From assembly GCA_039621445.1 (NCBI GenBank), contig CP154954.1, forward strand, positions 27,865,735 through 27,929,734: 64,000 nucleotides of DNA. Reading direction: 5' to 3'. The notes beneath the pieces were generated by a model. That model saw only the letters and a list, made by a program, of their open reading frames with translations. It searched no databases and was not told where the DNA came from. The first letter of the stretch is position 1. The number at the start of each line of letters is the position of its first letter. The translations under genes and the position numbers were made by a program. The stretch comes from Euglena gracilis. Lineage: Eukaryota. This document shows, in pieces, positions 18,996 through 35,531 of this stretch.

Positions 18996-19005
18996 TCTGC
19001 TACCA
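18996..19005 (-). promoter_or_regulatory. Primer-binding site, tRNA-iMet type (TGGTAGCAGA)
   Basis: Starts 2 nt inside the 5' LTR boundary, begins with TGG, and resembles initiator-Met PBS sequences. Confidence 0.75.
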
Positions 19006-19007
19006 AG

Positions 19008-19436
19008 TGTACGTCCCACCCCGGCTTTTCTACTTAAGGTTTTCCCCTGAAAAGGCCGTGGGGGGAGTAACAATAAAATTTGCTTCCCTTTTCCCCTTTT
19101 GAATGCAAAGCACACAAGCAGAAGAATTGGTGGGACCGCAGTCCCTTATATGATTGTGACTTTTGCTCTTTCGAGCTTTGTAAAAGAAAGAAAGAAAACT
19201 TCTATTCAAATGGGACTTCGCCCTCAGAATTCTAAAACAGAATTGCAAAGCACCAAACCCTGTAACCTTGAATTAGGAACCAGTTACTTTCGCTAAGCTT
19301 TCGCTAGCTCCGAGCTTCTCTCTTTGTCTTATGGTTTTAACCATGCCACTGTGTACGGCCCGGCCGTAGCCAGGTTGTAGGCCGTAGCCCCTTGTATCTG
19401 GTACACAGTGCCATGGCAGTATGGCTGCCTGGTACA
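19008..19436 (-). repeat. 5' LTR
   Basis: Direct repeat of 1529-1957 with about 7 substitutions counted by eye (~98% identity). TGTA...TACA termini. Confidence 0.93.
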
Positions 19437-20560
19437 CCCCCCCCCTCTTGCAGGGGGGGCTGATATTGGGGGGTGGTGCTGAGATTTTTTGGAGTTGCAT
19501 TGGGCTGGGGTTGATGATCCTCCTCTTTTGGGTTGGGGGGGGGTTGTTTTGCCAACTCATTTTGATTTGGAGTTGCCTTGGGATGAAATTCTTGATCCAT
19601 TTGTTTTACTGGGTGAACATATTGTGTTGAGTTGTCCCCTCTTTGGGGGGGACTTTGTGAGACAAAAGGGTAAGCTGCAGGCAGAAAAGCAAAGGCTGAT
19701 GGTGATGCCAGTACCACATCTGGGATTAAGGGTGCTGGCAGGCCAGGGTTGTGTAATGGTGTTGGGAGGAGGGGCACTTGAGTACTCTGGCTGTGCTGAG
19801 AAAGGCTCTGAGGGTTCTGAAGAGTTCAGCCTCTCTCCTTCTCTGCTCTTCTTCTCTGGTCCAATTCTTCCTCTGGTCATCTTCTCTGCTCCAGTTTGAT
19901 TGCAGTGGTTGCTGAGATTGCTGGTGTTCACCCCAAAGGTTGGTCTGTGATGGAATGTACATTTGTATGATTGATGTGACAGATGGACATACTTGACTTC
20001 TACCCACCGGTGGGCATTGGAATGGGCTGTTCATTGGAATGCCCACTGATGGGCCTGACTGTTGAATGCCCACTGCTGGGCTTGCTGTACAGGGGGGCCC
20101 CAGACTCACTTGCTGATGGAGCTGGGGCTGAGGAGAACTCTGTTGAGATATATGATAACTGGGTCAACCTCTCTGCCATGGGGGCTTGTAATCTGTTCCA
20201 AACCTTCTCTGTAGGTACTCTTCGTGCTCTTCCCTCTCTTGCCACGTCCTCTTCCTTCTCTGTGAGCTGCTGTCTTGACTTTCTCTGTCACTATGTACAG
20301 GGCGGTCAGCAGTGAGTCGTTGTGCCACAGCAGTGGTTAGCACAGGCACCAACAGCGGCAACAACATCTTGGCCAGCAGCTCCAACTGTCCAGTGTCCAC
20401 TGCAGAAGTAGGTGTACTTGAAGGGTTGGTTGTGGTAGCAGCTTGATTGACAAGGGGTGTATTGTCTTGAGTCTTGGGGTCTTCTGGAGGGCCATCCGGC
20501 CCCTTTGCAGCCATGGTGGTTATGCAGACGAAAAAACTTCTTTTTTTTTATTTATGCAGA
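19437..20560 (-). pseudogene. Unit D 5' part (SL-headed, ATG at 20514), interrupted by the LTR element
   Basis: Full SL at 20561-20585, then ccaccATGG and a broken low-complexity ORF. Apparently continues at 1528. Confidence 0.55.
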
Positions 20561-20585
20561 CGAAAAAAAATAGACACTAAGAAAG
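20561..20585 (-). other. Euglenid spliced-leader exon copy
   Basis: CTTTCTTAGTGTCTATTTTTTTTCG, one mismatch to the SL. Confidence 0.88.
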
Positions 20586-23500
20586 GCTGGGACGGTGGTG
20601 GGGCGAACCGAATCCACCGACCAGTGGCACAGCCTACTGGATTTGAAGAGTTCAGGGGAGTAAGGCTATGTACAGAGGCAACAGTCTGTGCACGCTGGTG
20701 AAGGGATGGAAGGTAAAAGGGGCAAGCTTAGAGAATAGTATAAGGCGCGAGGTGCGGGGGCAGGTAAGAGGGGTGAGCTTAGCGAAAAGATCTCGTCATG
20801 CTTCGGGTGCACAGGCGATTTGTAATCCTGTTCTCGACCTCCGCAATTCTGGTTGGTCATTGAGATTTGGATTGGGTGGACGGGCCCTTCGTTTCCTACT
20901 GCACCAGGATCGGGTCAGGAGGTGCGCTTGAAGAGGTTGTATGGTGGACCTGGCTGGCACTTGGCTTGAGGTCCCTCACGGGGGTTCAGCTCCCCTTTGA
21001 TTGTGTGCGACTTCTGCACCTCCATGGTGGACGTCCGGATAGAGTTCTCGGCTTTTGTTACTCCATTTCGGGTTTTTGGAGCTCAGCCTCGTGGCTATGA
21101 AGTACAGTAGGGTTTATGAGATTCAGGGAGGCAATGGTCAGCGAGCTCTTCGGGGCATTGTCCCCAAACCAATTGTCGTCCAACCTCCCGGGCCAGAGTC
21201 ATGCTTATTCCTTGCCAGCAGGTCCCCTCGACGCCCCTCCTCTCCCAGGCGTCGTGTTGGCCTGCTAGCAGCTTGATGCAGTTACCAACAAAGGTGAGCG
21301 CACCATCCCCCATGCCACCATAACAGTCCAAGACAAAGGGTATGAATGTCCAGCCTCTGCGTTGGCAAACATCTCCATACTTCTTTATCTTGTCCTGCTC
21401 TTGTTCCTCATGCCACCTGCCAATATCCTCCAAGCCAGCGCGATTTCGCGAAGGCGCAAGTGGGTGACGAATGGTGACGTCGATGGCTGCCGGGCCGTTT
21501 GCATCGTACCTCATGACAAATACGTCGCCTGGTCGTGAGCCATCTGGGGCACTTTCTTCCCTTCTGGCTGGGAAGCCTGCACGCTGCGCGAGCCCGAGGA
21601 TGTGTGATTGCACCGCATTGTGCCGCCGGACAATGTTGTTTTTGTGGCAGCAGACAAGGTGGTGGCCTCTGACATCTGTGGGGTTGTGGCACCTTGGGCA
21701 GGCAGGTGGGCTGTCTGTAGCGCTGACGACCGGGGCAGCCAGAGACCACTGGACGATGGCCTGAAATTCTCTGGTTGGAATCAGTGTTTTGGTTGAGGCA
21801 CACGGTGTCACTGAGGCCCATGCCATGGCGTGTGGCTTCATCTGGAAGGAGAACTTCAACTTTTCCGTCCCTTCCAAGGCGGCGTGCAGCCTCTGCTGTC
21901 GTGCTTCAGCACAAGCATTTCCCCAGAAGCGCTGTGTCAGCATCTCGGGCGTCAACAAATCATGTCGACGCGGGTCATCACAGAAGGATTGAGCGGATGT
22001 TGGCCAAGAGCAGCTTACTTTGATGGCTCCTACTGTCTCCGCGAAGTCGATGGGGAGTAGCGGAACAGAGCAGAAGGCTGGGAGGTCAAGGATCCGATCC
22101 CCTCGAATAACGAAATCCAGAGTTGCTGCCCATCTGGCGTTCACTCTCTCAACAACTGGGTCGCGGATACCCAAACCCCCCAGTCGAACCGGGAGAGTGG
22201 CTTGAACCCATTGTGGTTCCTCCAGTGGTCGTCCGCTGATGATGCTCATTGTATTCCGCACGGTTTTGCTGAGCAAGGCACATTGGTCTTGGGCATAGGA
22301 GGAAGGGGTTGCCCGCAGGAGGTCATTCACCTTGCATGCGTCCAGGCACATCCGAAGGATCGTGAATTGAACGTGTGCGGAAGGCACTCTCTGTAGGAGG
22401 GAACATGCTTTCATCGCAGCCTCGCACCGTCCAAACCAGGTGTGTTCGGCAAAGCTGCCGTCCGCTGGGTGGCACACCGGGACACCCAGGGATTTAATCC
22501 CTGAGCCAGGGATAAAAGGTGTCACCGGGATTTGTTGGAGGATGCTTGTTCCCATTGGAAGGGAGGACCATGCGGTCCTGAAGGCCGGCCCCCACAGCGT
22601 GCACTTGTCCAGGTTGAGTGCCACACCGATCGGAGGGCCCTTTTCCAGGATCATTCGGACCGCAGCCTCGAGTTGGCACATGTTGCCCACGATGTGGGCG
22701 TCGTCCAGGTACCAGGCTTGCCAGCCACATACGGAATGAAGATCTTCCACCAGTCCTTGAATGGCAAGGGCGAAAGCGGCGGGGCCACAAGGATCCCCTT
22801 GCTGGACCCCCGATTTACTTCGGAGGCAAGTATCCCCCAAGAAGAGACTGGAGTGTTCTGCATAACATGTTTCCAGCCACGTGACCATTTCGGGGCATCT
22901 TTCTCTTGCCGCTTCCAATAAGGCGTCACGGCGGACCCGGTTGAACGCGTTGCTGAAGTCTAGCTGTAGCACGCCCCAATCAGCGGCCTGTGTGCTACTT
23001 AGGGTGGTTACGAGGTGTTGCAGCCCCATTCTAATCAACCCACAAGCATCGCGGCAACCCACCCCAAATTGTCCGGGCATTCCTTCTGCAGTGAACTTGC
23101 GAACCGCGGGTTGTCTCATCAGCACCTTTCCGACCAATCTGCGTACACACTCTCCCGACGCGATCGGCCTTGTTCCTTCGTGTTCCGGGTCCAAGGGTGG
23201 AGGCAGCAAGTTACCGGCTTCGTTGACTTGTGCAGGGTGCTTTACCTTTCGCAGGGCTGTCAAGCGTGCGGAGGCCAAGATTTCGGCCGCCCCGACGGGC
23301 CACCCGTCGTTGATGCTTTTGAAGGCAAAGGTTGCCAATCCCTCAAGCAAGGATTCGGCCTGCCCTCCCGCCTCTCGGCTCAGCATGTCCTTGAGGTGGT
23401 CGGGTTTCAATCCCGACGGTCCCGCCGCAGATTCCTTCCCGAAGGAAAATACTGCCTTCCGGACCAAGGAGAGACGGTCACGTCTCTCCTCCTCATCTGC

Positions 23501-24127
23501 CGGTGGAGGCGTTGCGACCCTCTTGTCCATGGGGCCCCGCCCTGGTGGCTCCTCAAATGGGTGCATGTCTTGGAGTCTTTTCCGAACGGTAGGGTGCTTG
23601 TCGTCTTGCACACCGTCGGACAGCAACAATTGGCACGCCTTCCCCACTGCCCCTTTACCGACAAGGCGTTCCAGCCGGCGAACAAAGCCTTCCTCTTGCA
23701 CCTCCTCCTCTCGTCGGACCTGTCCCCGGGTTCGAACCAAGGTGGCCGGTTGCGCGCGGTGCTGAGAATCTTCCCAGCTGTCATTCACGGGGCGTTTGAG
23801 ATACGACTCCGCTCTCGCTCTGATGACTCTTCCGAGCCTCGCCCAGTGACCCCGTCCTCCTTTCCCCAAGGGCGCTAGGACAGATTTTGGGAAGGCCCAG
23901 AGCGCGTGGAGGGTCTCCCATGTTGGTCTTTCGTTGAAACATCTCAGGACAGTTGAGTATGAATCACAGACAGCCGGCAAGGCCCCTTTCGGGATGATTG
24001 ATACCGTCCCCCGGTGGTCCAGGGATATGTCTGTCCACGAGGGTGACAGTGGTGGGCACGGATCAGTCAAAGGAGAGCCCGTTCTCATTCCCGGCAGGAA
24101 CGGAATAGACACTCCCGGCAGGAACGG
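20586..24127 (-). mobile_element. Non-LTR retrotransposon unit C (CRE-type RT + RLE), 5'-truncated
   Basis: Intact RT-RLE ORF, ~500-nt 3' UTR, and SL-derived sequence at both junctions. Confidence 0.88.
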
Positions 24128-24136
24128 AATAGACAC
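21095..24136 (-). CDS. Reverse transcriptase + CCHC finger + restriction-like endonuclease (unit C)
   Basis: AGPSGL, RPIASGE, LDFSNAFN, GVQQGDPCGP, WYLDD, CPRC..HHLVC, RRHN, RPGD..DVT..K..KY. Confidence 0.93.
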   Translation of the reverse strand: MSIPFLPGVSIPFLPGMRTGSPLTDPCPPLSPSWTDISLDHRGTVSIIPKGALPAVCDSYSTVLRCFNERPTWETLHALWAFPKSVLAPLGKGGRGHWARLGRVIRARAESYLKRPVNDSWEDSQHRAQPATLVRTRGQVRREEEVQEEGFVRRLERLVGKGAVGKACQLLLSDGVQDDKHPTVRKRLQDMHPFEEPPGRGPMDKRVATPPPADEEERRDRLSLVRKAVFSFGKESAAGPSGLKPDHLKDMLSREAGGQAESLLEGLATFAFKSINDGWPVGAAEILASARLTALRKVKHPAQVNEAGNLLPPPLDPEHEGTRPIASGECVRRLVGKVLMRQPAVRKFTAEGMPGQFGVGCRDACGLIRMGLQHLVTTLSSTQAADWGVLQLDFSNAFNRVRRDALLEAARERCPEMVTWLETCYAEHSSLFLGDTCLRSKSGVQQGDPCGPAAFALAIQGLVEDLHSVCGWQAWYLDDAHIVGNMCQLEAAVRMILEKGPPIGVALNLDKCTLWGPAFRTAWSSLPMGTSILQQIPVTPFIPGSGIKSLGVPVCHPADGSFAEHTWFGRCEAAMKACSLLQRVPSAHVQFTILRMCLDACKVNDLLRATPSSYAQDQCALLSKTVRNTMSIISGRPLEEPQWVQATLPVRLGGLGIRDPVVERVNARWAATLDFVIRGDRILDLPAFCSVPLLPIDFAETVGAIKVSCSWPTSAQSFCDDPRRHDLLTPEMLTQRFWGNACAEARQQRLHAALEGTEKLKFSFQMKPHAMAWASVTPCASTKTLIPTREFQAIVQWSLAAPVVSATDSPPACPRCHNPTDVRGHHLVCCHKNNIVRRHNAVQSHILGLAQRAGFPARREESAPDGSRPGDVFVMRYDANGPAAIDVTIRHPLAPSRNRAGLEDIGRWHEEQEQDKIKKYGDVCQRRGWTFIPFVLDCYGGMGDGALTFVGNCIKLLAGQHDAWERRGVEGTCWQGISMTLAREVGRQLVWGQCPEELADHCLPESHKPYCTS

Positions 24137-24141
24137 TCAGA
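24090..24141 (-). other. Partial SL (TCTGAGTGTCTATT) with a 24-bp junctional tandem duplication
   Basis: (GTGTCTATTCCGTTCCTGCCGGGA)x2 at the unit B/C junction. Confidence 0.8.
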
Positions 24142-24601
24142 CTACACACGGTGGGTAGCACAGCTTCACCCAAACCGTGCCCCGGGCCCAGGGAAACGTC
24201 TCTTTTGGCCCTCGCCACAAGAGGAACCCCCTTGTGACTCCCTGTGCCGCCACAGGTCGCGGGTAGATTATACTGTGGGTGTAATGTACAAAGGAGCTGA
24301 GTGAACTTGTTGTGAACTTGTTGTGGAGGTCAGTGGTTAGCGGAAGATGAGCAAAGGTCACCTTCAATATATATTGGGCGGGGAGGGGGGCGTGTGTTCC
24401 GCTTTTGCCACCGGATGGCGTGTTTGTGTCGGGTTTTGGCTTTTGTTGTGTTTTGCTTCTCTGCGTGTGTACGTGATCCATGGATTTGTCTTTGGCTCGG
24501 CGTGTGGCTCTGCTCTGCTCAGGGGATAACTACGGGTTAAAAACTTGGCAGGTGAGAGTTCAAGGTTGGTTATTTGGTTCAGAGTTTGTGCTCAAAGGCC
24601 T

Positions 24602-27409
24602 TCAGACAGAATAGGGTGAGTGGGCAGAAGACAGGGTGATCTCATCTTTGGAAGAATACAAGCTCCAAACGAGCTGTCTGCTGATTTCTCTGATAAGTGT
24701 GAAGGACAGGCCTTGCCAAATGTCTGCTTCTGCAGCCCGCCGCTGCCACCCTTCCCGCTGCCCCAGAAGGGCCTTGAGGAGGGTGGCCATCAAGGAGCAC
24801 GCTTCTTGTCCCATGCCCCCATAGCAATCCATGACGAATGGCGTCAACCGCCAGCCCAGTCGTTGGCATGTTGTATCATATTTGGCATGCTTTTCGGCCT
24901 CTTGACGTGTTTGCCATTGTGAAAGGCTCTCTGCACTTCGCAGCGGATGACTTTGCGCAAGGGTGTGGCGGATTGTCACATCCACTGCAACGGGTCCATC
25001 ACTGTCCAAGCGAGGAATGAAGATATCCCCAGGCCGGGAACGGTCATCAGCTCGTTGTTCTTTACGGGCTGTAAATCCTGCCTTCTGTGTTGTGGTTGTC
25101 AGAAAATCTTGTACCGCCCCGTGCCGCCGGGTGATGAAGTTTGATTTGCAGCAAACGAGGTGGTGTCCGAGAAAATCTGATTGTCCAAAGCATTTGGGAC
25201 AGAGGTTGGGATCGGATTCCATTGGTGTGAGAGTCATTCCAAGGGACCAACGAAGTGTGCAGCGGAATTCAGCCGTGGGCAACAGGGTGCGGAGTCCTTG
25301 AGATGGTGTCAAAGCGGCCCATGCCATAGCGTGTGGTTGGCATTGGCTTGCAAAGCGTACAGCATCAGGTCCATTCAATGTGTCCCGAAGTGTTTTCTGG
25401 CGGGCAAGCATGCTCTGCTGATTCCACCAACGTTGTGAATTGTGTGGAGACTGTGCCTGAGGGATCAAATTTTTGTCAGTGGCCCATTGTGGCAGTGGGG
25501 CTATTTGACCAAGTTCATTGAGGGCTGCCCGTAAACAATCATCAGTGTCTTTGGGAAGGATGTCCAAGGCAGCGGGCAGGCCCAAGACAGAGGGAGCTCT
25601 TCGACAGAAGTCCACCACTTGAGACAATCTGGCTGGCACACGTTGAAATAGTGGATCCGAGATCCCCAGTCCACCGCATCTGATGGCCAGGGAAACTTGC
25701 AACCATTCTTCTGGAGTGCAAGGGGAGCCGACCATGCCACTGAATGTTTCCCGAATAATTCCCGACAATGTCTTGCATGCCGCTGTTGCAGAGGTGATTT
25801 TGCAGGCGCGCAAGAGGTCATTCACTTTGCAAGCAGATAAACAAAAACGAAGCAAGGTGAATTGCACATGCGATTGAGGTAGGTGCTGAAGTACTGTGCA
25901 AGAACGTCGGATGTCTGCAATGCGCTTATTCCAAACTTCGTCACAGAAGCGGTCATCTTGGGGGTGGTGGACAGGGACCCCCAAAACTTTCAAACCAGAA
26001 CCAGCAACAAAGGCGGTCAGTGGTATTTGATGTAAGGGGCTGTCGTGTGGCGTGCCAGGGGGAATGCAAGGGACGCCTTCTGTTGATGTGAACGCTGGTC
26101 CCCACAATCGACATTTTGCAGGGTTTACGGCCAACCCAAGCGCGGCTGCCTCGCGAATCAGGAAGGCAAGGGCATTGTGCAGTTGGGCTGGGGATCCCAG
26201 CAGATGGGCGTCATCCAAGTACCATCCCTGCCATTCAACCAACGGTGAGAGGCCCTCACAAAGGTCTTGCACTCCCCAGGCGAAAGCTGCTGGTCCACAT
26301 GGGTCGCCTTGCTGAGCCCCCCTCTGGGAAGGCAGACAATGGTTTCCACAATACAGCTTGCTGTGTTGGGCGTAGCACGAATCCAGCCAAGGGCACACTT
26401 CTGGGCATCGTCTACTGATAGATTGCAGGATTTTTTCCCGTGACAAAGAGTTGAAGGCATTCCTGAAATCCACTTGAAGCAGCCCCCAGCGATTGTCTCT
26501 GTCTGCGTGCAAAGTGTCCACCATTTGTTGGATTCCCATTGCGATCAGTGGACAAGCATTCGGCACACCAACGCCACATTGTGGAGGACTCAGTTCTTTC
26601 AAAGCATTTACTACTGTGGGATGACGCATGAGGCATTTGCCAACCAATCGGCGAAGGGTTTCACCTGCTGCGATTGGGCGAGTGTCTTCATCACACACCG
26701 TGTTCTCCACAAGGTTTCCAAAAGCATCCTCTTCCATTGCTGTTTGTTTGTTCTGTTTTCGCAGAGGTGTCAACCTGGCTGAGGAAAGAATTGGGGCCAT
26801 GCCGGGGTGAACACCGTTTGTAATTGCCCGACAGATGAAGGTATCAAGCCCTTCGAGGAGGTCATCTCCACAAGCCCCTGGGTAGTCTCCAACCATGGCC
26901 TTGAGGTGGTCAGGTCTCAGGCCAGAAGGACCCGGTGCGGATTCCTTTGGGAACCCGAATATGGCTTTGCGCAAATTTTGCAACCGTTCTTTTGTGCTTT
27001 CTGGGTCCGAAGGAAAGGTGATCGTTTGGGAAGGGTCGGACACCGGGATGCGCGGTGGAGGCTCTGGTGGGTGCAGGTCACGCAGCCTTTGAATCACTTT
27101 TGGGTCATTGCTGTTCTGAACCCCCTCAGAGGTGAGCTCTCGGCAGGCTTTTGAAATAGCCCCGTGGCCAACAAGGCTTTCAATGCGGGAAAGAAACCGT
27201 TCTTCGGTGGCCTTGGCAGCGAGTGCTGTTTTTTGCCTTGTCTGTCTGCCTTGTGGCTTTTGTGGGAGACTGGAGTCCAACCAAGAATCAAACACAGGAC
27301 GGGTGAGATACAGGCGAGCTCGTTCTGCAATTTTTCTCCCCACCATCGCCCAGTTCGATCGCCCGCCACGCTGCAAAGGGCAGAGCACCGCTTTGGGGAA
27401 GGCCCACAA
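24602..27409 (-). CDS. Reverse transcriptase + CCHC finger + restriction-like endonuclease (unit B)
   Basis: APGPSGLRP, VDFRNAFN, GAQQGDPCGP, WYLDD, CPKC..HHLVC, RPGDIF..DVT. Confidence 0.93.
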   Translation of the reverse strand: MWAFPKAVLCPLQRGGRSNWAMVGRKIAERARLYLTRPVFDSWLDSSLPQKPQGRQTRQKTALAAKATEERFLSRIESLVGHGAISKACRELTSEGVQNSNDPKVIQRLRDLHPPEPPPRIPVSDPSQTITFPSDPESTKERLQNLRKAIFGFPKESAPGPSGLRPDHLKAMVGDYPGACGDDLLEGLDTFICRAITNGVHPGMAPILSSARLTPLRKQNKQTAMEEDAFGNLVENTVCDEDTRPIAAGETLRRLVGKCLMRHPTVVNALKELSPPQCGVGVPNACPLIAMGIQQMVDTLHADRDNRWGLLQVDFRNAFNSLSREKILQSISRRCPEVCPWLDSCYAQHSKLYCGNHCLPSQRGAQQGDPCGPAAFAWGVQDLCEGLSPLVEWQGWYLDDAHLLGSPAQLHNALAFLIREAAALGLAVNPAKCRLWGPAFTSTEGVPCIPPGTPHDSPLHQIPLTAFVAGSGLKVLGVPVHHPQDDRFCDEVWNKRIADIRRSCTVLQHLPQSHVQFTLLRFCLSACKVNDLLRACKITSATAACKTLSGIIRETFSGMVGSPCTPEEWLQVSLAIRCGGLGISDPLFQRVPARLSQVVDFCRRAPSVLGLPAALDILPKDTDDCLRAALNELGQIAPLPQWATDKNLIPQAQSPHNSQRWWNQQSMLARQKTLRDTLNGPDAVRFASQCQPHAMAWAALTPSQGLRTLLPTAEFRCTLRWSLGMTLTPMESDPNLCPKCFGQSDFLGHHLVCCKSNFITRRHGAVQDFLTTTTQKAGFTARKEQRADDRSRPGDIFIPRLDSDGPVAVDVTIRHTLAQSHPLRSAESLSQWQTRQEAEKHAKYDTTCQRLGWRLTPFVMDCYGGMGQEACSLMATLLKALLGQREGWQRRAAEADIWQGLSFTLIREISRQLVWSLYSSKDEITLSSAHSPYSV

Positions 27410-29033
27410 GGCTGCGGCTGGCTGGGGCTGGTGACGATGCTACTGCGGTTGTTGCCACCGAGGTTGGTGGGGGTCCCGCGAGGGCTCGTGACGATGCTGC
27501 TGCGGTCGTTGCCACTGAGGATGAAGAGCTGGCACCCAAAGGGAGGTTGGAGAAGTTCAGGAAGGGCGTCGCCTGATTTGCTTGCATCCAAATGGCCCCA
27601 ACATCTGACGGGGGGAAGGGTCCTGGTCCTTGTGTGCCAATTGGGTTCTCCATGATGACCGTGGAGCACATTGAGGGGAGGCCTTGTTGGCCAAAGAACA
27701 ATGGACCCGGCAGATTTGGGAACCAAGATCCCCTTTCCAATGGTGGCACTGCGGGTGGTGGTGCGGATGGGGGGATGGAAATTTGTGAAGCTGGCGCCAT
27801 GTCAACGTCCTCACCCGACACCGAAGGGTGCTCTGCGGGCGGCGGTGCAGCAGGAGTTATTGAGGTTTGTGATGCTGGCGCCATGTCAATATCTTCACCC
27901 GGAACAGATGGTGGGGTTGTAGGAGGCCCGGGGTTACTCTCAATGTCCCCGCAGGTCAGTAAAGACCGACCTCGGCCTGCCCCTCCCGATGCTGGTAGGG
28001 TAGGCTGTGTGCTGTCTTTCGCAGAAACGTAAGGCACCAGCACTTTTATTTGTTTGGCCAACGTTGGGTGGTTTCTTCTGGTCAGCGGAGGCGGAACCTG
28101 GGGGTTGTCCGGTTTATTTTGCTGAGGTGGGAAGGTTGCAGGCCAGTAGAATCCTGCAGAACTGGCTGGCTGGGGGGCCAGTGTTGCAGACCAAAAAGTG
28201 GATGTGCTGTCTGGCTGGGGGGCCACTGTTGCAGTCCAAAATGTCCAAAATGTGGAGGAACATGGTTTGCCAGTTTGTCGGGGGCTTTTCAGGCTGAGAG
28301 CAAAAATGGTGTCAGGGGGGGGCCTCTGCAGGCCCATGGCCTTTGCAGGCCACTGGGACAAAATGCTGCAACAGGACAAAAAGGTGTCACAGGGGGGCCT
28401 TTGCAGGCCCAGGGCCTTTGCAGGCCACTGGGGCAAAATGGTGCAACAGACCGAAATGGTGTCACAGGGGGGCCTTTGCAGGCCCAGTGACTTTGCAGGA
28501 CACTGTTGGGGTGGCAAAATGTTTTTCAATGTCAAGTCAAAACTGCTGCAAAAAGTGTCACTGAGGGGTTGGGGTGGCAAAATGTTTCTCAATGTCAAGT
28601 CAAAACTGCAGCAAAATGTGTCAGAGCTTTTGGTGTAACATGTGCTGTGAAAACTGGGGGTTTGCCACTTCAATTGATCAGAAGTTTGGGATGCAATGCA
28701 GAACACCGAAAAGAAGACACTGGAGCTGAAAGTTCCACTTAATGGTTGGCAGATGGGGGGCCTTTGCAGGCCCAAAGGGGGGGGCCTTTGCAGGCCCAAA
28801 AACTGGGGGGGCCTTTGCAGGCCCAAAAACTGGGGGGGCCTTTGCAGGCCCAAAAACTGGGGGGGCCTTTGCAGGCCCAAAAACTGGGGGGGCCTTTGCA
28901 GGCCCAAAAACTGGGGGGGCCTTTTCAGGCCCAGTGGCTGAAGGGGCCTTTTCAGGCCCTGTAGCAGGGGGGGCCTTTTCAGGCCCAATACAGCCAACAG
29001 CAGCATGGTGAAGTTCTGCAGCAGCAAGACCAA
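27288..29033 (-). CDS. Unit B N-terminal region: LGLQRPPQF repeats plus 2A-like peptide, out of frame with RT near 27410
   Basis: 27-nt tandem repeats at ~28755-28990. GRGRSLLTCGDIESNPGP at 27924-27977. Confidence 0.6.
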   Translation of the reverse strand: MVLLLQNFTMLLLAVLGLKRPPLLQGLKRPLQPLGLKRPPQFLGLQRPPQFLGLQRPPQFLGLQRPPQFLGLQRPPQFLGLQRPPPLGLQRPPICQPLSGTFSSSVFFSVFCIASQTSDQLKWQTPSFHSTCYTKSSDTFCCSFDLTLRNILPPQPLSDTFCSSFDLTLKNILPPQQCPAKSLGLQRPPCDTISVCCTILPQWPAKALGLQRPPCDTFLSCCSILSQWPAKAMGLQRPPPDTIFALSLKSPRQTGKPCSSTFWTFWTATVAPQPDSTSTFWSATLAPQPASSAGFYWPATFPPQQNKPDNPQVPPPLTRRNHPTLAKQIKVLVPYVSAKDSTQPTLPASGGAGRGRSLLTCGDIESNPGPPTTPPSVPGEDIDMAPASQTSITPAAPPPAEHPSVSGEDVDMAPASQISIPPSAPPPAVPPLERGSWFPNLPGPLFFGQQGLPSMCSTVIMENPIGTQGPGPFPPSDVGAIWMQANQATPFLNFSNLPLGASSSSSVATTAAASSRALAGPPPTSVATTAVASSPAPASRSLVGLPQSGALPFAAWRAIELGDGGEKNCRTSSPVSHPSCV

Positions 29034-29260
29034 TAAGGGCTGAGAAGCCCAAGGACTTGGGTTCTTGAATGTCTTGTCTTGAGCTTGTACCTTTGACTTC
29101 TGGTATTGTACTTGTACTTGACTTCTGCCTGCACCAGCAGGACTTCAACTTCTGCCTGCACCAGCAGGACTTCTTCTGCCTGCACCACTTGCGATGATAG
29201 TTGAACTCTTGGCTTAGTTTGTCCCCACCAGGGGCTTTCAATTGTCCGCCATGTATTATG

Positions 29261-29311
29261 CGAAAAAAAAATAGACACTCAGAAACTCAGAAACTCAGAC
29301 ACTCAGAAAGC
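29261..29311 (-). other. Euglenid spliced-leader exon copy plus stuttered partial copies
   Basis: TTTCTGAGTGTCTATTTTTTTTTCG at 29285-29261 matches the Euglena SL as I recall it (ACTTTCTGAGTGTCTATTTTTTTTCG) with one extra T. It is preceded by GCTTTCTGAGTGTCTGAGTTTCTGAG. Confidence 0.9.
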
Positions 29312-30482
29312 CAACAACACGGCGGGTAGCACAGCTTCACCCAGACCGTGCCCCGGGCCCAGGGAGATGTCTCTTTTGGCCCTCGCCACAAGGAGAAACT
29401 CCTCATGGCTCCCTGTGCGGCCACAGGTCGCCGGTAGATACTATGGGTGTAAAGTACATAAAGGTTGTACGGAGTGCCGTGCCCGTCCTGCGGTCCATGG
29501 TTAGAGGAAAATGGGAAAGTCCCATCTTCAATATATACGGCGGCGGGGGGGGGGGGGAGTGTGTGCTTTGCCTGCCACTGTTGGCGTGTTTGTGTCATTG
29601 GCTGGTTGGCTGATTTGTGCCTGGGGTGGTTTCACAGCCGTCCGAGAGTGGCTGATTTGTGCCTGGGGTTGTTTCAGAGCCGTCCGAGAGTGGAGGTGAG
29701 AAAGCTGGCCTCATGGCCATTGCTCTGTGTGGGCCACCGAAGGTGGTAGAGGTGGTCGGTGCACTGGATGAAGTCACACTCAAAAGTATGGGGAATGCGT
29801 ACCACCGCTATTGCAATCAAGTAGTTGCTCAGGGCACTGTCCCCATGCCAGTTGTCTTGCCAACTCGCGCATCAAAGCCATTCCAAGTCCCTGCCATGCA
29901 CTGGCCTCCACACCCCGCCTCTCCCAGCCGTTATGTTGGCTTGTTTGGAGGCGGATGCATGTGGAGACGAATCCTTGGCCTGCTTCACTCATGCCACCGT
30001 AGCAGTCCATCACCAGTGGGATAAATGTCCAGCCTCGTCGCTTGCAAGGGTCCCCATACTTGGCAATTTTGTCTTCTTCCTGTCGAGTGTGCCAATTGTC
30101 CACCTGAGCTGGAGGTGACCTGGAGGGTGCTAGTGGGTGTCTGACTGTGACATCAATGGCTGCGGGTCCATTTGCGTCAAATCGAGTGATGAAAACATCG
30201 CCCGGTCGAGTTCCGTCCTCAGCTTTTTCTTCTCGACGTGCAGGAAAGCCAGCTCGCTGTGCCAGGTTCAGGACAAAGCTTTGCACTGCCCCGTGCCGCC
30301 GAACGAGGTTGTTACGGTGGCAGCAGACGAGGTGGTGGCCGGCTGTGTCAAGTGGGCTCATGCATCGTGGACATGCGGGAGAGTGGCTCTCTTCTGTTTT
30401 TACCACAGGAGCGCCAAGCGTCCATTGGAGGAGGGCAACAAATTCTTTCGTGGGAACAAGGGTTTTTGTGCCAGCAGAGGGG
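29312..30482 (-). mobile_element. Non-LTR retrotransposon unit A, heavily 5'-truncated (zinc finger + RLE + 3' UTR)
   Basis: ORF 29780-30406 with CPRC..HHLVC and RPGDVF..DVT. Flanked by an identical GCTTTCTGAGT at 30483-30493 and 29301-29311. Confidence 0.88.
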
Positions 30483-30990
30483 ACTCAGAAAGCGCGCGTT
30501 ATGCTTTTGAATTCCGTTCGCGGAAGCAAACGTGGGGAGAGAAGGGAACGTGGGAAGAGAAAAAAAGGGGGAGAGAAGCCAGAGCGCCTCACGGAATGCG
30601 CCCAAAAGAGGACTTCAGGGCATTGATTCCTTTGCAGGGTGCTCACTATTCTGATTTCTTTCCATCTCTTCCTTCTCTCATGTTTTCCAGCGCGCTTTGT
30701 GGCCCAAAACTGCCCGGTTTGGGGTGTGGTTGGGTTGATTTTTCCATAATATCTCGACAATGAAGCAAAATAAGCCCTTGGAATGCCCTATCCAACCACG
30801 ACTTATTTTCCCCTAACTCTTTGTGTCACCATCCGAGTTACCATCCGGGTGAAATTTTGCTCCTTTTGTGAGGCTTTCTTCCTCTCACAGAAACTACCTC
30901 CAAACATGGTGAAAATTTGAGGGCTTTATCCAGAAAGCTTTAAACCTAATGTCTTCGATTTCCTAAACCCCTTGGTTTAAAACCCCAAGT

Positions 30991-31007
30991 GATTCCTTCT
31001 GTTTTAG
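30991..31007 (+). promoter_or_regulatory. Probable SL trans-splice acceptor of PHB2
   Basis: gattccttctgttttAG ends 19 nt upstream of the ATG, the expected position for an outron acceptor. Confidence 0.55.
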
Positions 31008-31026
31008 TTCTCCACCCATCCGCACA

Positions 31027-31221
31027 ATGGACCCTCAGAAGAAGTTGAAAGATTTGCAGAAGTGGGCCACCGAGTCCTTCTCCAAGAAGCCTCCTGCCGG
31101 AGGTGGTGCCATTGCGAAGGCTGTAGCAGGAATTGGCGTTGCAGCTTGCCTTGCAAATTCCTTCTTCTTCGTGGAAGGAGGACACAAGGCAATCGTCTTC
31201 AATGCCTTCTCTGGCCTTGGG
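31027..31221 (+). CDS. PHB2: Prohibitin-2 exon 1 (MDPQ...FFVEGGHKAIVFNAFSGLG)
   Basis: N-terminal hydrophobic segment, then the prohibitin motif VEGGHKAIVFN. GTATGC donor at 31222. Seven exons join into an 876-nt open frame (291 aa + TAG). Confidence 0.9.
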
Positions 31222-34200
31222 GTATGCCAAAGGTTAAGAATGTTTGTTTACTTTGATGAAGATAAAGTTACTTGTAATTGTGAGACCCTCACCCCCCCGC
31301 AAAGTGGACAAAGTTTTCTGTCAAATTTTGGTTCACCTCCCTGAAGGCCAAAATTTCACCCCCCAAAGTGTCCGGCCCCCTGGAGTGGCCGTTTCGGGTT
31401 CCGACGGTTTGGAGGTATGCCTTTGGGGGGGGGGGCGAGGGGTGTCCGGGCATTTTCTTTGGGCAAAAACAGACGTTCTCCACCCCCACAAAAAATTTTT
31501 GTAGGCGCCCTACCCCCCCCCCCAATAAAGCCCCCCCCTCGGTTTTCGACCAACGTTCCGAATAGTGCCCCCCCCCCCCCCGAATGGAATCCTCTCCCAT
31601 GGATTGTGTGTCATTTGGGACGGCGAGGTAGGGGTTGAAGGCTGAATAGATTGCCTGAATGCTAGGAACTGGGGGGGGGGGCAGGATTGACGGTTTTTTT
31701 TAAAAAAAAACAACAAAAAAAACTTTTTTTTTAAAAAAGCGCCAAAAAAAAACATGTTTTTTTGAAAAGCAAAAATTTGACCTTTTTCCTTGCGAAACCG
31801 CCATTTTTGAGGAAAATTTTTCGGGAGTGGTTCGGGTCACCGGGGGGGGGGGGGGTCACGGGGAAACACCACATTTTCGGTGGCTAAAAAATAGGAATCA
31901 CCGAAAATGATTTTTCGGGGAGAAATCCTTTTTAGGCTCCAAATTAGGAATCCCCCAACTTAAAATTGGTATTTTGACACCAAATTAGGCATCGGAGACA
32001 AGGCACAGGGGGGGGAGGGGGGGTCCGAGGGGGGGGGTTGGAAGCTGTACAGGGGGGGGGGTCCCCAGAAAATCACAACTGTACTGCCTACCCCCGAGAC
32101 AGTTGCGACATTTTTCGTCCAATTGAGGTTGGCAATGGTGGATTTTGCGAAATTCAGATGCATTTTGCAAAATATTTGTGTTTTGTAAAAAGAGTGGTAG
32201 CCAGTATTTTCACTTTAACACTTAGCAGAAAGGCAGGAAGCAGCTTCAATCACTCCCCCTTGGCACACCATGCGGAATTGAGCCAGGGTTGATGTTTTTT
32301 TTTGTTCTTCAACAAAGAACAAAAAATATGTTTTTTTCCGAAAAAACCACACAAAAACATGTTTTCTTTTTTAAAAAAAAAAACAAAAAACCAACAGAAA
32401 CAAAAAAAAAGAAAACCCCCCCCCCCCATTACCCCCTCCCCCCCCCCCCCCCCCTCCCCCCCCCGATCCCTTCCCCCGCCCCCTGGGCCCCCAATCGCCC
32501 CCCCCCCCCCCCCGCCCAACCCCCCCGCGACCCCCCCTCTCCCCCCCCCGTCCACTCCGCCCCGCCCCATACCCAAAGCCCCCCCCCCTCCCCCCCCCAC
32601 TCCCCCCCACGGGTCCCCCACTCCCCCATACCACCCCTACCCCCCCCCCAACTCCCCCCCGCGCCCATAATAACCTAAACAAGCCCCCGGTGACCGCCCC
32701 CCCCCTGCCCCCCGCCCACGCCCCAGCCCCGAGTTACACCTGTATGACCCCCCCGCGACCCGAAAATCAATCTTATGCCATTCTTTTTTAAAAGAATTTT
32801 TTTTAAGACAAAACATGATTTCTTGTAAGTAAACTTTCTTGTATCCTTGTCCGCCCAATGCACTTTCACACCCAAAAGTGGCCAAAAATCTTTTCCCCTG
32901 AAAGAAGTGCCCAAAACTGGTGCATTTCCCCACCCAAAACGGAATTTTGACCCCCCCCTTAATTGAGCATTTGGGTCCGGGAAAATTTTTTTTCATGCGC
33001 CGAAGGCGCCGAAATTTTTTTTTGCCCTATTTCTAAAGGAATTTTGACCCCCCCTTATTTGACCCCCCCCTTATTTGACCCCGCGACCCCCCCTTCGTGA
33101 CCCCCCCATGACCCCCCCCCCGCGACCCGCACCACCCCTTTAAAAAAGTATGTTTTTTTTGTTTAAAAAAAAACAAGCCGTTTTTAAAATATTTTCATCT
33201 GTCTCGGGGGGGTTGGAAGTGGGGGGGGAGGGGGGGGGTCCCGGGAGGGGGGGTTGGAACTGTACGGGGGGGGGGTCCCAAGGTTTGACCAACTGTACTG
33301 CCTTGTCCCCATCACCATTCCAAATTTTGCAAAGTTTATGCCTCAAAATTCTGAATCTACCTGAATATTTTGTCAAATTAGGCATCAACGGCCAAGTTAT
33401 TTTTCAGAAAAAAAATTGGCCGAAAAGGGTCTTAGGCCGGGTCGGGGGGGGGGGGTCACGGGGGGAATATCCCCTCTAAAGTTTTTTTCATGACATGATT
33501 TTTGGGGCCAGATTGCCTCAATGCCAGGGGCCCCGAGCGAGAAATTGGTGATGGACTTTTTGGTGGTCGGTAGCGACTACCATCACCCCCCCTGGAGGTT
33601 AGGCAGGGGTGGGGGGGGGGTTGGGGGCTTCGCCCCTAAAGGAATTTCAATGGAGAAACTTCACCGGTGAAGTTCACCGGTGAAGGTCACCGCCATGTAT
33701 TTCCAATGAAGAGGGGGGGGAGGGGGGGGTCCCGCCCGAAAAACCCAAAGTCACCGCCTGATCTCCCCTAAATGACCCCCCTCTTGTCCCGGCCCAGACC
33801 CCGGAGGGTAACTTAGGCGGGGGGGGGGTCACTTAGGGGGGGTCGGAAAAAAAGGGTGTCGGACACCCCCCACCCCTTTTTTCGGAATTTTTTTTGTGAA
33901 ATTTGTGTTCTCTGGCATCATTTCCACTAGAAGGAAAACTCACGACTCTGAAAATCTCAAAAAAATCGGTCGTTTTTGAAGACTTTTTTCTTGAAAAAAT
34001 TTCCATTGTCTGGGCCGGGACCCCGGAGGGTCATTTAGGGGGGGGGGGTCGTTTAGGGGGGGGGGTAATGGTAGTCGCCACCGACCATGGTCGCTAGCGA
34101 CCATTTTCTAGCGAATAATCACTAGCGACCATTGGTCGGGCCGACTAGTCGGCCCGACCACCATTTTTAGTCCACCCCCCCCTCTAAAAAAGTTTTTAAC

Positions 34201-34754: not shown

Positions 34755-35345
34755 GGTAACAAAATCCCTTTGCTGCCGGACCGTTTTGTGAGCATGCGCA
34801 ATCAGACACCCATTGTCGGAGTGCGCCTTCAGCGCCCTTGGTCGTCTAGCGGGGGGGGGACGGGGCTGCCACCCCCCGCCCCCCCCGCCCCCCCAATAAC
34901 AAAATCCCTTTGGTCGTCTAGGGGGGGGGGGGGGGCTGCCGCCCCCCCCCCCGCACCCCCCCGCCCCCCAATAACAAAATCCCTTTGGTGCCGGACCGTT
35001 TTGTGTGCATGCGCAATCAGACACGCATTGTCAGAGGGCGCCTTCGGCGCCCTTGGTCGTCTAGCGGGGGGGGGGGGTTGCCGCCCCCCCCCCCCGCACC
35101 CCCCCCCCGCCCCCAATGACAAAATCCCTTTTCTGCCGGACCGTTTTGTGTGCATGCGCAATCAGACACCCATTGTCGCAGGCGCCTTCAGCGCCCTTGG
35201 TCGTCTAGCCGGGGGGGGGGGCTGCGGCCCCCCCCCCCGCACCCCCCCCCCGCACCTCCCCCCGCCCCCCAATAACAAAATCCCTTCGCTGCCGGACCGT
35301 TTTGTGAGCATCCGCAATCAGACACCGATTGTCGGATGGCGCCTT
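34755..35345. repeat. Tandem ~165-bp repeat (taacaaaatccctt...ccggaccgttttgtg...aatcagacac)
   Basis: About four diverged copies visible. Confidence 0.75.
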
Positions 35346-35360
35346 CGCCCTTGGTCGTCT

Positions 35361-35531
35361 AACCCGGAGCCCAACCCCAACCCTAACCCGAAACCCTAAA
35401 CCAAACCCTAACCTTGAACGTAACCCGAACCCTAACCCTAAACCAAACCCTAAACCTTAAACGTAACCTGAACCCTAACCCCAACCCTAACCCGAAACCC
35501 TAACCCTGTACCAAACCCTAATCCAAACCCT
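35361..35531 (+). repeat. Degenerate interstitial telomere-like (CCCTAA)n tract
   Basis: Repeated aaccctaa/aacccgaa units that resume after 37382. A short reverse tract lies at ~39720-39752. Confidence 0.7.

Follow-up and report, generated by a model that had tools for sequence, protein, structure and literature searches.

A head-to-tail chain of non-LTR retrotransposons joined at spliced-leader sequence in Euglena gracilis

To our knowledge, the known spliced leader (SL)-specific retrotransposons, those of trypanosomatids and nematodes, are confined to SL-RNA gene arrays. Retrotransposons with a restriction-like endonuclease (RLE) are divided in PMC4640811 into the clades CRE, R2, R4, NeSL, and Hero, and their targets include spliced-leader exons. 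No literature on SL-targeting retroelements in euglenids was found (Repbase, subscription journals, and supplementary files were outside the search). Repeats make up 58.84% of the Euglena gracilis genome as described in PMC11252322, with unclassified repeats at 32.7% of the genome and long interspersed nuclear elements (LINEs) at 1.49%, and the spliced leader is unmentioned in the accessible text of that paper; in the accessible text of the Diplonema genome paper, gene models are annotated as SLACS reverse transcriptases without an analysis of their target. Here we analyze a stretch of 64,000 nucleotides (nt) from E. gracilis (assembly GCA_039621445.1, contig CP154954.1, positions 27,865,735 to 27,929,734 of the forward strand), called the window below. 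On its minus strand, positions 30493-20561 hold three retrotransposon units without long terminal repeats (non-LTR units A, B, and C) and the start of a fourth (D), arranged head to tail with SL sequence at all four junctions. We consider it probable that at least four diverged, R2-like families insert by target-primed reverse transcription into 26-nt SL copies and that their full-length copies carry an SL of their own at the 5′ end.

The published E. gracilis SL is ACTTTCTGAGTGTCTATTTTTTTTCG (PMC6242988; it is also contained in a primer of PMC5654406). An earlier note, made from the letters of this DNA alone, had reported minus-strand SL at every junction of the chain, and all four strings were recovered at the coordinates first described. 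The junction motif is this species' real SL, with which it agrees apart from position 1, one mismatch in the copy before D, and the extra units and longer T run before B. Read along the minus strand from the chain's outer flank (>30493), SL positions 1-11 come first (30493-30483, GCTTTCTGAGT, position 1 being G), followed by unit A (30482-29312). At 29311-29261 the SL is complete and is enlarged by three extra TCTGAGTK units and by a T run of nine: the same 11 nt as at 30493-30483 open it, the short TCTGAGTK repeats follow, and the remainder of the SL closes it, with a T run of 9 rather than 8. This segment contains the downstream copy of the target-site duplication of A, whose upstream copy is 30493-30483, and forms the 5′ end of unit B (29260-24142). 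Between B and unit C (24127-20587) lie SL positions 6-19 (24141-24128, TCTGAGTGTCTATT), a remnant of the SL copy upstream of C and the insertion site of B. A complete SL at 20586-20561 both flanks C on its 3′ side and forms the 5′ end of unit D, which extends from 20560 onward. The 25 nt of this copy at 20585-20561 have a single mismatch (T for G at SL position 8), and at 20586 the base is C, in contrast to the A of the published SL.

When the window was searched with a 24-nt SL pattern at up to 3 mismatches, there were 2 matches in the 64 kb, compared with 0 in each of 100 shuffles. A 13-nt SL core at up to 1 mismatch gave 3 matches, compared with a shuffle mean of 0.02, and all matches of pattern and core are located exactly at element boundaries. 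The occurrence of SL at the four junctions is far above chance expectation.

Two of the units are truncated at the 5′ end. What remains of the open reading frame (ORF) of unit A is a C-terminal CCHC motif and the RLE, in an open frame of 234 codons (30484-29783) that is followed by the 3′ untranslated region (UTR). In public run data, which are contigs of at least 90% likeness mapped to a 10.3-kb stretch and which give no transcript starts or strands, other A-type copies run on upstream of 30485 as coding sequence (2 contigs, run X1). Unit C is truncated within its ORF, and other C-type copies continue in frame upstream of 24101 (2 and 3 contigs). The 5′ junction of C has a 24-nt tandem duplication that includes SL positions 11-19. 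Unit A is flanked on both sides by an exact 11-nt repeat (30493-30483 and 29311-29301), as was claimed earlier for a target-site duplication made of SL sequence; because the last 3 nt of this repeat (AGT) are also present at that point in other A-type copies, the duplicated target of A is 8-11 nt long. Truncated non-LTR insertions typically show such a microhomology at the 5′ end. A search for terminal repeats of the units was negative, and the marks of target-primed reverse transcription are present: 5′ truncation in A and C, the 11-nt repeat flanking A, and the lack of LTRs.

SL DNA appears to have been the insertion target, because the truncated units A and C still have partial SL on the 5′ side and SL on the 3′ side. 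An SL borne by RNA cannot account for SL that is joined to points internal to an element, and so the 5′ neighbors of A and C would be target DNA. All three complete 3′ ends, those of A, B, and C, adjoin SL.

The best reading of the SL before B and D is that it belongs to the element itself, as its 5′ end. Unit B is preceded by SL through position 26, joined straight to the B leader, and the target of B, visible downstream as SL 6-19 fused to C, is without positions 20-26. Since SL 20-26 in front of B is beyond what the target could supply, the T run and the CG would have arrived with B. In front of both B and D the SL leads into a short leader and an ATG, an order that would correspond to the form of a trans-spliced messenger RNA (mRNA). 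The most likely source of the element's SL, we infer, is a trans-spliced mRNA that served as the transposition template; alternatively, a DNA-encoded SL could be transcribed along with the element. An SL 5′ end carried by the element had not been considered in the earlier note, and it is the feature that sets this system apart. One further candidate for the origin of the short repeats in front of B, a relic-SL model of the dinoflagellate type with re-splicing at an AG in the genomic SL, was rejected: it predicts repeated SL 3′ halves after one full SL, whereas the window has repeated 5′ pieces ahead of one 3′ half.

In the mechanism that we propose, the RLE would nick the bottom strand at or just inside the SL 5′ end (at positions 0/1 or 5/6, and near 17 in another copy), reverse transcription would begin from the structured 3′ UTR, and the top strand would be cut ~8-19 nt downstream, by which part of the SL would be duplicated. 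A full-length complementary DNA (cDNA) would end in the SL complement and anneal to the SL piece upstream, by which the SL would be made whole again, and a truncated cDNA would be joined through microhomology. Cleavage by the RLE would then lie within the first half of the SL, and the cDNA would be joined via SL homology. The short repeats at B, the 24-nt duplication at C, and a 17-nt duplication at D may be by-products of the cDNA end joining the upstream target half. Every insertion would leave an SL piece upstream, and a full-length insertion would add a whole SL, allowing the next element to enter on the 5′ side; the chain would thus grow head to tail, with each newcomer entering at the 5′ end of an older element. 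Stacking would follow from the element carrying SL as its own 5′ end. Each family would make one RT-CCHC-RLE protein (RT, reverse transcriptase), with N-terminal proteins separated by 2A peptides ahead of it in full-length copies. The junctions are consistent with insertion in the order D, then C, then B, then A. The order B before C was rejected, as it would need 12 untemplated nt after C matching SL 2-7 by chance. For this locus, the earlier proposal of a multi-family group of SL-inserting RT-RLE elements, in which each insertion leaves SL for the next, is supported.

Units A, B, and C appear to be separate families and independent insertions, as had been proposed, and not a tandem duplication, because their proteins are only 46-64% identical. 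Protein identity is 45.5% between B and C (947 amino acids, aa), 64% between A and C (235 aa), and 47% between A and B (236 aa), and each unit is about as distant from the other two as from its closest database proteins (48-54%). The 3′ UTRs of A and B are 79% identical over ~295 nt, and the A protein is nearer to that of C.

Unit B is full-length, and its short leader follows directly after the SL. The region between this leader and the 2A motif (28303-29015) contains at least seven tandem 27-nt units (28751-29015) and three 75-nt units (28303-28527), and joints in the run contigs reveal many length variants of it; just past the 2A motif there is an 84-nt duplication (27737-27904). An upstream frame of 618 codons carries the 2A motif, and the RT is in another frame, with a single frameshift near 27400. 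The RT-CCHC-RLE frame of B (27439-24605, 945 codons) is open and is followed by the 3′ UTR (24604-24142). A counterpart of residues 1-61 of C is absent from B.

The open frame of unit C (24088-21098) encodes 997 aa from its ATG (P0001). All on the minus strand, it contains the RT motif YLDD (residues 460-463, 22711-22700), the CCHC residues C797, C800, H810, and C814 (21700-21647), and the RLE residues R822, H823, P853, D855, D870, and K900 (21625-21389). The Pfam family RVT_1 matches C with E 3.5e-14 and B with E 1.5e-11. In the alignment columns of 36 relatives, the RT aspartates, C797, C800, H810, C814, H823, and D870 are invariant, and R822, P853, D855, and K900 are conserved in at least 90%. 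We take the combination of CCHC with RH-PD-D-K to be the R2-type endonuclease pattern, the motif names being those of the R2 literature.

An AlphaFold model of the C protein, built on the alignment of its relatives, had a pLDDT of 88 and a pTM of 0.89. With this model, the first 7 matches listed by Foldseek are R2 proteins in target-primed reverse transcription complexes. In a second fold comparison (VIA), the first 5 matches are again R2, with Z scores of 21.9-24.8 and 712-768 aligned residues that extend up to model residue 981-987, whereas for LINE-1 ORF2p the aligned part stops at residue 730-787. The first aligned residue of R2 lies at 243-305, past its N-terminal DNA-binding part. By sequence R2 is barely detectable, with one PDB sequence matching at E 1.4e-5 in the RT only. 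Based on this model, the protein is predicted to be R2-like, with an RT, a CCHC motif, and a restriction-like endonuclease.

An exhaustive protein search gave 10,807 matches at E ≤0.001 and 698 at E ≤1e-30. The closest relatives are environmental proteins, 39-48% identical to C and up to 54% identical to B; relatives with names come from a sponge, a tardigrade, a coral, and a dinoflagellate. Trypanosomatid proteins were absent from the 40 and 53 matches listed in word-index searches, which is weak evidence against a CRE affiliation, and no protein named CRE, SLACS, NeSL, or R2 was among the 53 listed in a profile search. The cluster members of 10 proteins bore no informative names, and the ESM Atlas gave only clusters labeled "hypothetical protein." In a metagenome scan, relatives were encoded on 511 of 599 stretches; the 80 retained loci are only 24-31% identical, and neither the Euglena SL core nor a dinoflagellate SL motif was found in any of the 80, a result with no bearing on the flanks in Euglena. 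The relative P0202 (47% identical to C) has an N-terminal polyprotein in which Pfam recognizes an RNA-binding domain of the SLBP type (E 2e-13); its match to a Dam-like adenine methyltransferase is weak (26.4 bits, below the Pfam cut-off of 28.1). An NPPF motif is present in P0002, P0008, and P0202.

Upstream of the RT, B (27947-27924) and D (574-551) have the 2A motif D(V/I)ExNPGP within a continuous frame. One to three 2A motifs were also found in 16 of 201 stored relatives, among them P0002, P0005, P0008, and P0202, and multiple 2A motifs are predicted to split the N-terminal part of such relatives into several products. An A run or poly(A) is lacking at all three of the complete 3′ ends, those of A, B, and C. 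The last ~125 nt of A and of B have the same predicted multi-stem fold (z -3.6 and -3.1), and of its 41 predicted pairs, 7 are kept via a change on one side and 1 via changes on both sides. This fold would fit an R2-like 3′ end to which the RT binds.

To the 10.3-kb stretch mapped 19,808 contigs of run X1 and 16,774 of run X2. A contig of the outer flank (30494-30759, 266 nt, one contig in each of two runs, depth 190.6 and 103.4) stops exactly at the first SL base, so other alleles or copies may differ beyond this point, for example an allele without the chain. Relative to this flank contig, the summed depth per bin was 204-3424x (X1) and 294-4935x (X2), which is not a copy number and suggests very many copies of these families. 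In 1 contig of X1 and 2 of X2, a C-type 3′ end passes directly into the T run and the CG of the SL and on into a B-type leader (29270 to 20592), which makes this joint a second such junction, at another place in the genome. From the C-type 3′ end, 77 (X1) and 80 (X2) contigs continue into other sequence, the consensus of which opens with a T run at an agreement of only 0.35-0.37. Between 58 and 65% of the sampled words are present in the contigs of 14 runs, and no contig in the runs crosses a whole junction of this locus. Contigs that are 93-99% alike occur in the metatranscriptome X16 and in X15 (putatively RNA), which hints at transcription of the elements.

Several observations weigh against insertion of R2-like families into SL and an element-borne SL 5′ end. 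The 3′ junctions are spread over the SL: A and C end at its position 1, B at position 6, and the copy in the external contig at the T run, near position 17. The site is therefore less fixed than that of CRE or R2, and the defined target of ~25 nt that had been envisaged earlier is not supported. The 3′ ends of A, B, and C have the terminal CCRCCGT in common and then 5-7 variable nt before the SL, an arrangement looser than that of R2 or CRE. The 3′ ends joined to SL number three in the window and at least one in the external joint, where agreement of the consensus is low. The published SL begins with A, whereas the copies in the window have G or C at position 1. At the boundary of SL and leader in B or D there is no AG acceptor, and re-splicing of a retro-copy at the same point is ruled out. 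Pfam searches of B, C, and the relative P0202 detected neither a zinc finger nor a Myb DNA-binding domain. Finally, the founding target of the chain is not within the window, the 3′ end of D lying outside it.

One alternative is that the chain is a classical CRE- or SLACS-like case, situated within a genuine SL-RNA gene from which the SL pieces derive and transcribed from the promoter of that gene. The break upstream of A, after SL nt 11, would resemble the trypanosomatid site. Trypanosomatid CRE-clade elements do insert in SL RNA genes (PMC12278014), but at this locus no SL-RNA intron follows any SL copy, and Rfam gave 0 matches at gathering scores in the window, with neither a 5S rRNA nor an SL RNA gene found and only 4 weak, unrelated matches (E up to 1) at 29200-32000. 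Because the SL is followed by a leader and an ATG, with no intron and no 5S rRNA or SL RNA gene found, the locus is not an SL-RNA gene. Moreover, SL 20-26 in front of B cannot derive from the target of B, and the summed depth points to copies in numbers well above what SL genes could accommodate. We regard this explanation as unlikely. An explanation without any target specificity, in which the RT jumps from the SL 5′ end of one trans-spliced RNA to the 3′ end of another and a chimeric multi-element cDNA is integrated once, is compatible with B and D opening with a complete SL and leader and with the R2-like protein, the R2 enzyme being known for end-to-end template jumping. It is quite improbable given the partial SL (1-11 and 6-19) fused to internal points of the truncated A and C, which is neither an RNA 5′ end nor a splice product, as the latter would have positions 20-26. 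The exact repeat flanking A is what a staggered cut would leave, and the decay of D and the LTR element inserted in it, set against the open frames of A, B, and C, point to different ages.

Ectopic recombination or microhomology-mediated end joining between SL-bearing copies, or mis-assembly of repeats, could exploit very abundant families with SL as their common homology, and local rearrangement is evident from the short repeats where the 5′ ends of B, C, and D are joined. Recombination, however, would not give the exact repeat flanking A with a 3-nt microhomology at the point of truncation, nor SL remnants that can be explained by a single ordered succession of staggered insertions. Against mis-assembly, 58-65% of the sampled words recur independently in the run contigs (14 runs), which also contain another junction of like kind. 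Explanations of this sort therefore strike us as highly improbable.

A more speculative extension of insertion into SL concerns how the target is chosen. It was considered because the protein has no recognizable zinc-finger or Myb domain. A trans-spliced SL on the element RNA might guide or fix integration by homology and then, once converted to DNA, serve as the next target, so that target choice would be partly an RNA-borne address; we find this possible but doubtful. If it were true, the families would be freed from the limited number of SL-RNA genes, and self-extending arrays and very high copy numbers could arise in the 2.37-Gb E. gracilis genome.

The earlier note had recognized A, B, and C as chain members and had missed unit D, which is a fourth family and also a member of the chain. 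The first part of D (20560-19445, minus strand) consists of a leader with a duplicated 17-nt piece (SL end plus leader start), an ATG at 20513, and decayed frames. In its second part (1523-1, minus), decayed frames show homology to the polyprotein at the N terminus of relatives (tblastn E 2e-10 to P0002 and P0191), with a degenerate 2A motif at 165-142 in addition to the one at 574-551; the RT is beyond the window start. The two parts are separated by a Ty3/gypsy-type LTR element of ~17.9 kb (19444-1524, minus), which is outside the SL system, and because this element is inserted in it, D is the oldest chain member. The 442-nt LTRs (1524-1965 and 19003-19444) are 97.7% identical, and pol comprises RT, RNase H, integrase, and a chromodomain, with an upstream ORF of 1431 aa that has a zinc knuckle. 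Two ORFs downstream of pol (858 and 1186 aa) had no Pfam match. Euglena LTR elements with extra methyltransferase domains are described in a preprint (10.64898/2026.05.21.726589); no methyltransferase domain was detected in the LTR element of the window.

On the other side of the chain, a degenerate telomere-like repeat (CCCTAA-type, plus strand, ~12-nt spacing) lies at window positions 35360-35530, flanked by 137-nt repeats (34757-35409) and long G/C homopolymer-rich stretches (32417-32728). A small plus-strand ORF at 31027-31227, suspected of a prohibitin-type start, had no Pfam match and was left unnamed.

In a euglenid, then, several diverged families would have the SL as their landing site, and the target would multiply with the element. 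Head-to-tail arrays of retroelements thereby find a concrete explanation, and part of the repeat load of the Euglena genome may be accounted for in this way. It would also provide a compact R2-like RT-endonuclease with a short, known target, in which target choice read by the protein or assisted by RNA becomes testable.

With the CRE clade (CRE1, CRE2, SLACS, and CZAR), the Euglena units have in common that they are non-LTR elements with an RT and an RLE, insertion at SL, and a host in the same phylum, Euglenozoa (PMC12278014, PMC4640811). CRE-clade elements are described as occupying one fixed position in the SL-RNA gene and as generally ending in poly-A (PMC12278014), whereas the Euglena units have variable junctions and no poly-A. 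Their 3′ junctions are at SL positions 1, 6, and 1 and at the T run rather than at the same relative position of an SL-RNA gene, and 0 of the 3 complete 3′ ends carry poly-A. Unlike in the CRE clade, the Euglena SL copies are not SL-RNA genes, a complete SL starts the element, and a 2A motif precedes the RT. On account of these two described features, the junctions and the 3′ ends, the CRE-type label that the chain had been given is not retained. NeSL-1 of nematodes is likewise an RLE-type non-LTR element and is specific for SL1 (PMC4640811). It belongs to a different phylum, and a protease domain is mentioned for NeSL in the same source; no Pfam protease was found in B or C, whose N-terminal part is absent or degenerate.

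The closest architecture is that of R2 (9nl2, 9nl3, 8gh6, 8ibw, and 9dou), with an RT, a linker, a CCHC motif, and a C-terminal RLE, and the units are also like R2 in the lack of poly-A, the structured 3′ UTR, the variable 5′ junctions, and 5′ truncation. Unlike R2, their target is SL and not 28S rDNA, the sequence similarity is marginal, and there is no match to an N-terminal zinc finger or Myb domain. A 2A sequence ahead of the RT protein, as in the D(V/I)ExNPGP motif of the Euglena units, is likewise found in Ingi, L1Tc, and animal elements with an apurinic endonuclease (APE), and 2A-like sequences in non-LTR retrotransposons are described in PMC3708506. These known 2A hosts are APE-type, whereas the Euglena host element is RLE-type and its relatives have up to three 2A motifs, as predicted from sequence, which would add RLE-type elements to the hosts of 2A peptides.

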